This document shows, one piece after another, positions 32,901-35,900 of a DNA stretch of 64,000 nt. Location: NCBI RefSeq assembly GCF_056746865.1, contig NZ_CM163382.1; one strand, given 5' to 3'. The position numbers were made by a program. Positions within the stretch are counted from its first letter, which is position 1; every line of letters starts with the position of its first letter.

Positions 32901-35900
32901 AAACAGCAGTTGATAATTTCACAAGGAGTTCATAAATGCCAACCCCATGTTACATTTCAATTACAGGTCAGACCCAGGGGAACATCACTGCCGGTGCTTT
33001 CACCGCAGATTCTGTCGGCAATATCTACGTGCAGGGACACGAAGATGAAATGCTGGTGCAGGAGTTTCTGCATAACGTTACTGTTCCAACCGATCCACAG
33101 TCTGGTCAACCTTCCGGGCAGCGCGCGCACAAACCGTTCATTTTCACCGTGGCGCTGAACAAAGCCGTTCCGCTGCTGTACAACGCGCTGGCCTCCGGTG
33201 AAATGCTGCCGAAAGTGGAGCTGCACTGGTGGCGTACTTCAGTTGAAGGCAAGCAGGAGCACTACTTCACCACACGTCTTACTGACGCGACGATTGTGGA
33301 CATGAACCTGCACATGCCGCACTGCCAGGACCCTGCACAGCGTGAGTTTACGCAATTGCTCGCAGTATCACTGGCATACCGTAAGGTTGAGTGGGAGCAC
33401 ATCAAATCCGGTACTTCTGGTGCCGATGACTGGCGTGCACCGCTGGAAGCATAAATCTGAGTCAACAACATCCTGCCTTCGTGCAGGATGTTGTTTTTGT
33501 ACGTGTAAAAAATGAGTGTCAGTAAGGAGTTACGCTTTCATGAGGGAGATGGCGGATGCCGGAAACCCGGGCGGTAGCGTACCTGAAAATGTAAAGATGA
33601 GTGTAACGCTGCACTGGCACCCTTTGCTGCATGGTAAGAATCATTTGGTCCGTGAATAAATCAGGGAGGTCATTATGTCCTTAAAAGGTCTGCGCTTTAC
33701 GCTGGAGATTGACGGCCAGGAGCCGGACACCTTTGCAGTGGTGCATTTCAGGTTAATCCAGAACCAGTCTTATCCGTTTGTGATGAGTGTGGATGTTGCC
33801 AGCGACTCTTTTATGCAGACGGCGGAGATGCTGCTGGAGAAGAAGGCGACGCTGACCATCTGGCAGGGCGTCATCCCGCTGCGTTATGTCACCGGCGTGG
33901 TGGCGGGTTTTGGCATGCAGGAGAACAATGGCTGGCAGATGCGTTATCACCTGCGTATTGAGCCGCCGTTATGGCGGTGCGGGCTGCGGCAGAACTTCCG
34001 TATCTTCCAGCAGCAGGATATCCGGACGATATCGGCCACGTTACTGAACGAGAACGGCGTCACGGAGTGGACACCGCTGTTTTATGAGGACCATCCGGCG
34101 CGGGAGTTCTGTGTCCAGTACGGGGAAAGCGACCTGGCGTTTCTGGCGCGGTTGTGGGCGGAGGAGGGAATTTTCTTCTTTGAGCGGTTTGCGGCGGACA
34201 GTCCGGAGCAGAAGCTGACGCTGTGCGACGATGTGGCGGGGCTGTCACAGGCGGGAGAGCTTCCGTTTAACCCGGACACATCGGCAGGAGCGGAGACAGA
34301 GTGTGTCAGTATGTTCCGTTATGAGGCGTATGTCCGCCCGTCGTCGGTGCAGAGCCAGGATTACACGTTTAAGGTGCCGGACTGGCCGGGGATGTATGAG
34401 CAGCAGGGTGAGAACCTGAACGGACAGCTGGAGCAGTATGAGATATTTGATTATCCGGGAAGGTTCAAGGATGAACAGCACGGCAAGGATTTCACGCTGT
34501 ACCAGATGGAGAGCCTGCGCAGTGATGCGGAAAAGGCCACAGGGCAGAGTAATTCACCGAAGCTGTGGCCGGGAACGCGGTTTACGCTGACGGGGCATCC
34601 GCAGAAGATGCTGAACCGTGAATGGCAGGTGGTACAGAGTATTCTGTCAGGGGACCAGCCGCAGGCGCTGCACGGCAGCCAGGGGAGAGGAACCACGCTG
34701 GGAAATCAGTTAGAGGTGATACCGGCGGACCGGACGTGGCGTCCACGGCTGCAAAGCAAACCGAAGGTGGACGGGCCACAGAGCGCCATTGTCACCGGTC
34801 CTGCGGGAGAGGAAATCTTCTGCGACGAACACGGACGTGTGCGAGTGCAGTTTCACTGGGACAGGTATAACCCGGCAACGGAGGCGAGTTCATGCTGGGT
34901 GAGGGTGTCGCAGGCGTGGGCGGGGCCGGGATTTGGTAACCTGGCGATACCGCGCATCGGCCAGGAAGTGATTGTAGACTTCCTGAACGGCGACCCGGAC
35001 CAGCCGATAATCATGGGGCGGACGTACCATGAGGACAACCGTTCGCCGGGGAGTCTGCCGGGGACGAAGACGCAGATGACGATACGGTCGAAGACCTATA
35101 AAGGAAGCGGCTTTAATGAACTGCGGTTCGAGGACGCGACGGACAAGGAAGAAATTTACCTGCACGCACAGAAAAATATGCAAGTCGTTGTGCTGAACAG
35201 CAAGGATAAGCGGGTCAACTATGACCGGACGGTCAGCATCGGGCATGATGAATCCCTGGTGGTGGCAAATGACCGGAAAGTGACGGTTGAAGGTAAACAG
35301 GACCATAAAACCACCAAAGACCATGTCAGCCTGACAGAGGGCAATCAGGGGCTGGAGGTGAAAGGCGATCTGGCACAGAAAATAAGCGGCGCGCTGGGTA
35401 TCAGCGTACAGGGCGATATTGTTTTACAGAGCGACAGCAAAATCAGTCTGCGGGTGGGCGGTTCATTTGTGGTGATCCATTCCGGCGGCGTGGATATTAA
35501 GGGCGCGAAAATCAATCTTAACGGCGGAGGCAGTCCGGGAGACGTGATCCTGCCGATGCGCCCGGTGATCCTGAAAGCCGCAGCCGGAAGCGGGACAATG
35601 TTTGTGGCGCACTGCCCGAAGGAGGATAAGTGATGGAAACGGCACCCGTGCAGTACGCCATTGTGGATGGCGCTGTGGAGGAAGGATTGCTGGATTTTCT
35701 GAACGAGGTGAATCCCCCGCACTGTTGTCTGTATGCAGAACCCATACAACTGGATCTGGTCGCGCTAGCCCCCTATCTCGTGGAAGTCGTTCCGGAGGTT
35801 GAAGCATGGCTGAGTGTTAAGGCGTCGCCATGGGGAATATATCTGACTTCTGAGTCATCCATGCGTGAGCTACAGCAACACTTCAGACGTTATCTGTGGG

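Follow-up and report, generated by a model that had tools for sequence, protein, structure and literature searches.

The locus studied here is the 220-nt gap (33455-33674) between genes hcp and vgrG of a type VI secretion system (T6SS) cluster, contained in a 64,000-nt stretch of contig NZ_CM163382.1 (RefSeq assembly GCF_056746865.1) that was analysed as a whole and is here called the window. Positions 33300-33800 of the window are 100% identical to the sequence of Escherichia coli strain 118UI, a urine isolate, and the gap is unannotated in the near-identical genomes among the matches listed. One flank contains genes tssB-tssC-tssE-tssF-tssG-tagH-tssJ-tssK-icmH-tssH, and the other contains hcp, vgrG, a DUF4123 gene and two hypothetical genes; the window holds the T6SS cluster of the extraintestinal pathogenic E. 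coli (ExPEC) type. In the scheme quoted in PMC10711316, the B2-type cluster with vgrG-DUF4123 is designated T6SS-1, and the Rhs-linked type of enterohaemorrhagic E. coli (EHEC) is designated T6SS-2. A first-pass annotation of the gap, made from the window alone, had proposed an attenuator hairpin after hcp followed by a translated open reading frame (ORF) of 39 codons. We found that the hairpin is conserved across genera and is followed by a conserved non-coding element of about 105 nt, derived from the 5′ end of vgrG; the ORF overlaps this element and is not a conserved gene. The features of the region are as follows.

32936-33454, + strand: hcp (tssD), 172 aa, the upstream gene, from the ORF list and annotated as an Hcp family protein in 118UI
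33464-33499, + strand: hairpin of the intrinsic-terminator type, with a 13-bp stem and a 6-nt loop (33464-33495) followed by TTTG, from folding, covariation and the EHEC homologue
33515-33620, + strand: conserved, apparently non-coding and vgrG-5′-derived element of ~105 nt, matching end to end a hidden Markov model (HMM) of 20 species loci (nhmmer E = 3.9e-24)
33517-33535, + strand: block 1 of the element, TGTCAGTAAGGAGTTACGC / TGTCAGTAAGGRGTTACG, 5′ arm of a predicted long helix, which holds TAAGGAG; identity 76%
33540-33659, + strand: 39-codon ORF, inside a 47-codon GTG-start ORF (33516-33659), from the ORF list, shuffles, alignments and protein searches
33544-33585, + strand: block 2, the 42-nt core, GGGAGATGGCGGATGCCGGAAACCCGGGCGGTAGCGTACCTG / GGGAGATGGCGGATGCCGGAAACYYSGGCGGTAGCGTGCCTG; identity 86%
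33586-33593, + strand: 8-nt insertion AAAATGTA, which shifts the frame between blocks 2 and 3, from alignments
33601-33619, + strand: block 3, GTGTAACGCTGCACTGGCA / GCGTAACRCTGYACTG, 3′ arm of the predicted long helix, pairing with block 1; identity 66%
33663-33669, + strand: Shine-Dalgarno sequence of vgrG, AGGGAGG, read from the sequence
33675-35633, + strand: vgrG (tssI), 652 aa, the downstream gene, from the ORF list, the 118UI annotation and vgrG alignments

A conserved hairpin follows hcp

The hairpin consists of a 5′ arm, AACAACATCCTGC (33464-33476), a loop, CTTCGT (33477-33482), and a 3′ arm, GCAGGATGTTGTT (33483-33495), with TTTG extending to 33499. RNAfold gives 13 pairs and -20.3 kcal/mol, against -8.4 +/- 2.4 for shuffled sequences (z = -5.0), and none of 200 shuffles folded equally well; the structure is thus located where the first-pass annotation had placed it, but its stem is one pair shorter than the 14 bp then counted. 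In 33 loci from about ten genera, compensatory changes occur in 8 of the 12 aligned pairs and 97% of the cells are paired. As a control, pairing fell to 24-54% when the partners were slid by 1-3 columns, and counts for the whole structure such as those observed were reached by 0-1 of 500 shuffles. The window and the EHEC-type locus differ by two compensatory changes (A-U to G-C and U-A to G-C), and the hairpin begins 10 nt past the hcp stop codon in the former and 9 nt past it in the latter. The hairpin is real, exceeds chance expectation and has been kept in evolution.

A scan for intrinsic terminators did not list the window hairpin because T occupies only four of the eight bases past the maximal stem (UUUGUACG). 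When the A-U stem base is counted as tail, UUGUUUUUGU stands behind an 8-bp G+C-rich stem, and the same scan does list the homologous hairpin of the sister locus, which has 14 pairs and the tail TTTGTATTAC. A role as terminator or attenuator after hcp, with the partial termination suggested by the first-pass annotation, is supported by the compensatory pairs and by deletion data from the EHEC homologue (PMC13141884), described below. The attenuator idea itself is already described for a sister locus.

A small RNA or gene on the minus strand was also considered and rejected, as the minus strand of the hairpin has no U-tract and the ORFs there (33519-33644, 41 aa) are not hydrophobic and their frame is not conserved. 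In a genome of sequence type ST1193 (L002 3233-4000), IS26 has taken the place of the segment that runs from the middle of tssF to the terminator hairpin, hcp and the hairpin included; similarity to the window starts again at ~33505, and this genome thus has the conserved element and vgrG but no hcp.

Distribution and conservation of the element

Among 5,426 complete E. coli genomes, a sensitive search located the full gap in 549. A further ~2,190 genomes, O157:H7 included, have at the same chromosomal site a copy of 33460-33587 with 76% identity, flanked by hcp and a Rhs-linked vgrG. A scan with the Hcp protein over one genome per bacterial species returned 80 loci, 20 of which contained the gap sequence by BLAST and HMM; these belong to Escherichia, Citrobacter, Yokenella, Atlantibacter, Buttiauxella, Lelliottia, Phytobacter, Superficieibacter and Pseudocitrobacter. 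Metagenomes scanned with a pattern from the core, and filtered with the HMM, contributed 45 copies with 13 new variants.

The block identities listed above are means over 190 locus pairs, and compare with 51% at four-fold sites of hcp, 82% for hcp overall and 49% for the spacer past the hairpin. Within block 2, the motif GGTAGC was invariant in all loci, including the leaders of orphan vgrG genes. The element is therefore under purifying selection acting on its nucleotides, with no coding signature. It was not recognized in Rfam 15 (E <= 10; window, EHEC-type locus and leader of an orphan vgrG), where the best scores were <= 21.5 bits versus thresholds of 32-93. The match at 21.5 bits, to STnc370, lies on the minus strand, covers only the hairpin and was discarded as being at chance level.

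The gene that follows the element is not always the same. In two species of Lelliottia and in C. werkmanii the element adjoins hcp, and effector/immunity-like genes are situated between it and vgrG; the DNA just past block 3 is an insertion point for cargo. In the metagenome contigs L177 and L167, the element precedes an orphan vgrG, with AT-rich DNA in front of it and hcp absent. From the cargo insertions and the orphan vgrG positions, the element would therefore behave as a leader for whatever follows it. In L177 (10544-10561, - strand), a hairpin built from the 3′ end of block 2, with a T-run, stands just ahead of the vgrG ribosome-binding site and was listed as terminator-like by the scan.

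Several side observations concern these same sequences. The insertions of C. werkmanii and Lelliottia nimipressuralis (L032 3727-5307 and L021 3919-5977, respectively) hold two to three genes, one for a soluble protein and the rest for multi-pass membrane-like proteins, resembling an effector/immunity pair. Many relatives (L003 3150-3195; L008, L011, L013, L019) have a hairpin and/or a T-rich tract 25-35 nt before vgrG, and no second hairpin or T-rich tract was present at that distance in the window's lineage. Block 2 contains a direct repeat, GGCGGWWGC, with copies GGCGGATGC (33551-33560) and GGCGGTAGC (33570-33579) 19 nt apart, flanking a near-palindrome, GCCGGAAAC(C/T)(C/T)(G/C)GGC, that could be read as an RNA hairpin or as the binding site of a dimeric protein.

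Similarity of the element to the 5′ end of vgrG

The element HMM produced weak matches at the very start of vgrG in seven loci. Local alignments of each element with the start of its own vgrG gave z values up to 6.8, with a score unequalled by any of 500 shuffles in 5 of 16 loci, and always started at the TG of the vgrG start codon. The two consensus sequences share 44 of 57 positions, a score reached by one of 5,000 shuffles. Conversely, an HMM made from the first 90 nt of vgrG retrieved, at E < 1, only true vgrG starts and the element. Block 1 aligns with vgrG codons 1-8, TAAGGAG with codons 3-5 (TTAAAAGGA), and the GTG at 33516, which opens the 47-codon frame, is the counterpart of the vgrG start codon.

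In 24 hcp-vgrG gaps of Providencia, Halomonas, Dickeya, Aeromonas and Photobacterium, z ranged from -1.2 to 1.3, although this is a rough control since the vgrG starts were extrapolated. Because these gaps from other lineages show no similarity to the 5′ end of vgrG, the similarity appears to be specific to this enterobacterial lineage. Judging from these alignments, the element originated long ago as a partial copy of vgrG, covering the first ~65 nt of the gene.

Predicted RNA structure

Blocks 1 and 3 contain complementary stretches (GTTACG/CGTAAC and CAGTA/TACTG), and a helix between them is found in single-sequence folds of four divergent loci, with z = -2.0 to -3.4. In the fold of the window, TAAGGAG is mostly inside this predicted helix. 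Over the 33 loci, the long helix was 87% paired, with a compensatory cell in 4 of its 15 pairs (e.g., C-G to U-A in L175) and many one-sided changes compatible with G-U pairing. An inner helix within block 2, GGCGG/CGUGCC plus GCCG/CGGU, was paired in 96.6% of cells in the same loci and showed one compensatory series. In the window, C33553 is opposite A33581, a mismatch that is C-G in other genera and U-A in two ExPEC genomes of the 97% class that were read (strain 5132 and ExPEC XM) and in metagenome locus L104; the series C-G to C.A to U-A looks like a compensatory change caught midway. The C-to-U change at 33553 would, in the ORF, be an Ala to Val substitution.

RNAalifold recovered the terminator and the inner helix from the full alignment, but not the long helix. 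The modelled RNA structure of the element is, consequently, suggestive and not decisive. Two further candidates were discarded: pairing of block 3 with the vgrG start as a switch, which involves ~7 bp in the EHEC-type locus and is worse in the window, and a Rho utilisation site, given that block 2 is G-rich and not C-rich.

The 39-codon reading frame

The ORF extends, as the first-pass annotation had recorded, from ATG 33540 to a TAA at 33657-33659; this stop codon is 3 nt upstream of the vgrG Shine-Dalgarno sequence. The near-perfect ribosome-binding site at ideal spacing that had been assigned to it was confirmed in part: TAAGGAG is present at 33523-33529, but the 10-nt spacer is at the long end of the usable range. 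By itself, the ORF is within chance, because 15% of dinucleotide shuffles of the 220-nt gap yield an ATG ORF of >= 39 codons; 2% yield one that also has a Shine-Dalgarno-like motif.

The proposal that the ORF codes for a small T6SS protein or a leader peptide is not supported, since its frame is not conserved, it lacks codon periodicity and its product matches no protein family. Conservation of the frame in related loci was the check suggested by the first-pass annotation, and ATG 33540 proved to be in frame in no lineage but that of the window, which comprises ExPEC-type E. coli, E. whittamii and Pseudocitrobacter. In eight other loci an ATG is one base off register (ATGGGAGATGG...) and opens an 11-codon frame stopped at an invariant TAG, and the remaining loci have no ATG at the position of 33540. 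Between blocks 1 and 2, the length of the T-rich linker ranges from 5 to 12 nt, and its steps are not divisible by three. Downstream, the 8-nt insertion at 33586-33593 occurs only in the lineage of ExPEC-type E. coli and E. whittamii, and because of it the block 3 nucleotides are read there in another frame than in all other loci.

Of the 21 loci first aligned, 19 retain a second start codon, ATG 33549, and most loci keep its frame (MADAGNFGGSVPE.KRNTVL) open. Nevertheless, another frame is equally open across the core, and the GGGAG preceding this ATG abuts it with zero spacer. Variable cells in the core are distributed 22/21/25 among codon positions 1/2/3, that is, with no codon periodicity. 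The implied residue changes are radical (N to D/H/Y, F to P/S/L, P to S/L/Y/H), and those in the 'F codon' are transitions between U and C opposite a G, as would suit a stem. The ExPEC variants read keep the ORF open, with the stop changed from TAA to TGA at the same place; all of the 3-4 substitutions within E. coli are non-synonymous, one of them restoring a base pair.

The product of the ORF had no match in Pfam or NCBIfam at E <= 10, and a search of 5.8 billion proteins returned just 13 small unnamed clusters of near-identical sequences. The NCBI Prokaryotic Genome Annotation Pipeline (PGAP) calls, in some sister-type genomes, a hypothetical protein of 45 aa (WP_001297813.1) in the same gap, but this 45-codon ORF starts within the terminator stem and has a different end. 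The 39-codon ORF is therefore a lineage-specific, probably non-functional reading frame and not a conserved gene, and its putative ribosome-binding site is part of a block conserved for other reasons.

Relation to the EHEC region h3R

A homologous gap has been analysed experimentally in EHEC O157:H7 EDL933, where the hcp3-vgrG3 intergenic regulatory region was designated h3R (Vazquez-Lopez et al., Microbiol Spectr 2026, PMC13141884). Its region I contains a hairpin that starts at +8 of the 3′ untranslated region and forms a 32-base structure (PMC13141884). RNA from wild-type EHEC gave no hcp3-vgrG3 product by reverse transcription PCR, and vgrG3 mRNA was detected in the absence of an hcp3-vgrG3 co-transcript (PMC13141884). 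Deletion of region I increased read-through, reduced hcp3 mRNA to 6% and about halved Hcp3 or an upstream green fluorescent protein (PMC13141884). When regions I and II were deleted together, both genes were on one transcript and VgrG3, or mCherry, was raised above the level obtained with the deletion of region I alone (PMC13141884). The effects of deleting h3R were independent of the flanking genes, and region II repressed vgrG3 or mCherry even behind the Ptrc promoter (PMC13141884). The authors take region II as a promoter with predicted sites for Fis, MalT, NarP and MelR, report effects of at most less than twofold for twelve sugars and amino acids and no effect of CsrA on vgrG3, and mention the small annotated ORF EDL933_0238 only as a landmark (PMC13141884). 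VgrG was not obtained in EHEC even after promoter swaps (PMC13141884).

Both regions occupy the same position, the hcp-vgrG gap of the E. coli T6SS cluster at the same chromosomal site, are 76% identical over 33460-33587 and match the element HMM at about E = 1e-24 to 1e-27. They also share the hairpin right after the hcp stop codon, that of the window being the homologue of region I, with the conserved blocks next, and by analogy a similar behaviour would be expected, terminating and stabilising upstream and repressing downstream. They differ in that the window belongs to the B2/ExPEC, vgrG-DUF4123 lineage and the EHEC cluster is Rhs-linked; in the window, moreover, the tail past the stem is shorter and lacks TATTACG, its own linker and the 8-nt insertion create the 39/47-codon ORF, and the last ~55 nt before vgrG are unrelated and devoid of the T-rich tract of EHEC. 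Past block 3, the window and the EHEC-type locus could not be aligned except for the Shine-Dalgarno sequence GGAGG(T), leaving region III without a recognizable counterpart. Conservation across genera, an origin from the vgrG 5′ end and a test of the small ORF are not reported in the study of h3R (PMC13141884). The alignments indicate that the 220-nt gap is the ExPEC-type counterpart of h3R, and we infer that region II of the latter corresponds to the element at 33515-33620.

Proposed function of the gap and alternative explanations

The reading that we consider probable, with some reserve, is that the hairpin is a terminator and stabiliser, that 33515-33620 would be a vgrG-derived leader RNA damping the gene downstream, and that the ORF is a by-product. 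The hairpin would end most of the transcripts coming from the hcp promoter and its stem would shield them from 3′ exonucleases, with the structure being supported by covariation and the function by the EHEC homologue; the outcome would be abundant Hcp uncoupled from scarce VgrG, as the first-pass annotation had anticipated. The ~105-nt element, which arose as a duplicate of the first ~65 nt of vgrG, has been kept by selection and travels with the next gene, be it vgrG, inserted effector/immunity-like genes or an orphan vgrG. Its block 1 would pair with block 3 in a long imperfect helix enclosing the 42-nt core, with its small helices, and the resulting leader RNA would dampen the downstream gene on read-through transcripts or on those initiated upstream. 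This would fit the additional repression exerted by region II of EHEC on vgrG3 or mCherry behind Ptrc. The repression could come from the RNA structure by itself, from cleavage of the long helix by RNase III, or from a protein that binds GGA, e.g. CsrA. The 39-codon ORF and its apparent ribosome-binding site are by-products of the element in one lineage. A broader proposal, that the element is an undescribed and widely conserved cis-regulatory leader RNA of enterobacterial T6SS spike/effector modules, an exapted duplicate of the vgrG start gating vgrG or cargo through some protein, small RNA or RNase, is put forward tentatively, as possible rather than probable.

Several points weigh against the leader RNA reading. 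What is said of function is carried over entirely from a homologue with a gap of only about 76% identity, and the promoter and transcription-factor view that the EHEC authors hold of region II is a DNA-level explanation. The metagenome loci were found through a pattern inside block 2, and conservation of this block among them is partly due to ascertainment. The long helix is broken in Phytobacter, L121, L164 and Lelliottia V86, and covariation in the element is thin, with most pairs being invariant or changed on one side only. The T-tract of the window hairpin is shorter than those of its relatives and fails the T rule of the scan tool, and termination may be less efficient there. Lastly, no sigma-70-like promoter that could serve vgrG was found on the + strand of the gap. 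Strings resembling a sigma-54 promoter (TGGCAC-N5-TTGC-like, 33615-33630, and TGGCGG in block 2) were rejected by eye, having the wrong GG-GC spacing and no conservation.

The element could instead act as DNA, containing a vgrG promoter and/or operators for transcription factors, with vgrG forming a separate operon that starts inside the gap. This agrees with the promoter and the Fis, MalT, NarP and MelR sites predicted in EHEC region II and with vgrG3 mRNA being detected without a co-transcript (PMC13141884); likewise, the near-palindrome GCCGGAA-A-CTTCGGC and the repeat GGCGGWWGC at 19 nt in block 2 would suit a dimeric DNA-binding protein, and the strong conservation of the nucleotides, lacking periodicity, is as compatible with a DNA site as with an RNA. 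However, neither the window nor the EHEC-type locus has a sigma-70-like site on the + strand of the gap; the sole candidate -10, a TACTGT in block 3 of the sister locus, reads CACTGG in the window, where the 8-nt insertion also separates it from its -35. Promoter activity of region II was not demonstrated in EHEC, and sugars and amino acids had an effect of less than twofold at most (PMC13141884); its repression of a Ptrc-driven reporter suggests that it acts on the transcript or as a roadblock. Additionally, in orphan vgrG loci the element is downstream of AT-rich, promoter-like DNA, and pairing is suggested by the changes compatible with G-U as well as by the C-G to C.A to U-A series. We consider a DNA-level function rather unlikely.

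Translation of the ORF from ATG 33540, or of the shorter frame from ATG 33549 (MADAGN.GGSVPE...), into a small T6SS protein or a leader peptide coupled to vgrG appears improbable. In its favour, the ORF is intact, with TAAGGAG 10 nt upstream in a combination seen in only 2% of shuffles, stays open in the ExPEC variants read despite the change of stop codon, and ends next to the vgrG Shine-Dalgarno sequence; ATG 33549 is present in nearly all of the loci first aligned (19/21) with a frame open across the core in most, and PGAP calls WP_001297813.1 in the sister-type gap. These features are outweighed by the restriction of the in-frame ATG 33540 to the window's lineage, with linker and 8-nt indels breaking the frame, by a second frame that is equally open, by the even 22/21/25 distribution and the radical residue changes, and by the E. 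coli substitutions, all non-synonymous and one restoring a pair. Besides, GGGAG has no spacer to ATG 33549, TAAGGAG is largely within a predicted helix, the sister ORF begins in the terminator stem and has another end, and the product of the 39-codon ORF matches nothing in Pfam or NCBIfam and only 13 tiny unnamed clusters among 5.8 billion proteins. Least probable of all, and by our estimate very improbable, is that the element is a decaying scar, the functionless 5′ end of a former vgrG displaced by a recombined vgrG-effector module. In favour of a scar are the similarity of the element to vgrG, colinear from the start codon, and the loss of alignment together with cargo inserts just past block 3, which is typical of module exchange. 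Against this, neutral expectation is ~49% (spacer) or 51% (four-fold sites of hcp) and block 2 reaches 86%, above the 82% of hcp coding sequence; derived features such as GGTAGC are common to all loci, orphan vgrG leaders included, and region II of the homologue has a measurable effect (PMC13141884).

Comparison with other systems and significance

Terminator hairpins release RNA polymerase and block 3′ exonucleases. The window hairpin resembles the intrinsic terminators that act as intercistronic attenuators in being a G+C-containing stem-loop with a U-rich tract, a few nt past a stop codon, and in being placed between a highly expressed structural gene and a low-copy one; it differs in its short and interrupted U-tract (UUUUUGU, with two of the U's in the stem). 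The leader RNA proposed here would be analogous to the T6SS leaders controlled by RsmA/CsrA in Pseudomonas aeruginosa and by Qrr small RNAs in Vibrio cholerae, which are also conserved 5′ leaders that lower expression. Arrays of several GGA motifs are of the kind bound by CsrA dimers, and the gap contains AAGGAG (33524-33529), GGGAG (33544-33548) and CCGGAA (33559-33564), besides the vgrG Shine-Dalgarno sequence, as putative CsrA sites by sequence; unlike those of CsrA/RsmA leaders, these motifs are outside canonical hairpin loops. As with Rhs/CdiA orphans and vgrG-effector swapping, a partial copy of a gene end lies beside the intact gene, at a boundary between conserved and variable DNA. The known orphans, however, are 3′ toxin-encoding ends whose coding capacity is kept, whereas here a ~65-nt 5′ end would have lost its frame and conserved its nucleotides.

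A T6SS firing event uses hundreds of copies of Hcp and three of VgrG, and a terminator that also stabilises hcp mRNA, conserved in about ten enterobacterial genera, would be a simple means to set the Hcp/VgrG ratio. E. coli T6SSs are hard to activate in the laboratory. If true, the broader proposal of an undescribed leader RNA would explain why VgrG is undetectable in EHEC despite forced transcription, and the element is a precise candidate for this unexplained block, with blocks 1-3 and the C33553/A33581 pair as targets. For annotation, a tempting false gene is removed; the small ORFs called in the gap vary by lineage and should not be propagated. The element would also be a small case of a duplicated gene 5′ end kept as non-coding regulatory sequence. 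What is new here is the evidence that the ORF is probably not a gene and the definition of a conserved, apparently vgrG-derived non-coding element that is absent from Rfam.

Other features of the cluster

The vgrG gene of the window is intact, with 652 codons (33675-35633), and overlaps by 4 nt the start of the DUF4123 gene (35630-36472); the GGAGG motif ahead of vgrG is kept in related loci. PGAP calls vgrG of 118UI a pseudogene 'missing C-terminus', although a protein of the same length (WP_032153888.1) is annotated as complete in another strain.

The 5′ untranslated region of hcp contains a short hairpin, CCCGTCG-GGGATTAA-CGACGGG (32870-32894), followed by TTGTTCG. It is situated ~45 nt upstream of the hcp start codon and downstream of the ~700-nt AT-rich divergent region between tssB and hcp, and gave only a chance-level match in Rfam. 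Gene tssB (31730-32233) adjoins tssC (30223-31707) in the window, with no counterpart of the 74-aa hypothetical gene (WP_000123970.1) found between them in the sister EHEC-type cluster (L003/L004/L005 1022-1246).

Downstream of the effector genes, the segment at window ~39455-43776 (L001 18156-22477) holds an ISAs1-family transposase gene split by a group II intron (ltrA, ~40943-42193), then an intact copy of ISEc1 and more fragments of ISAs1.

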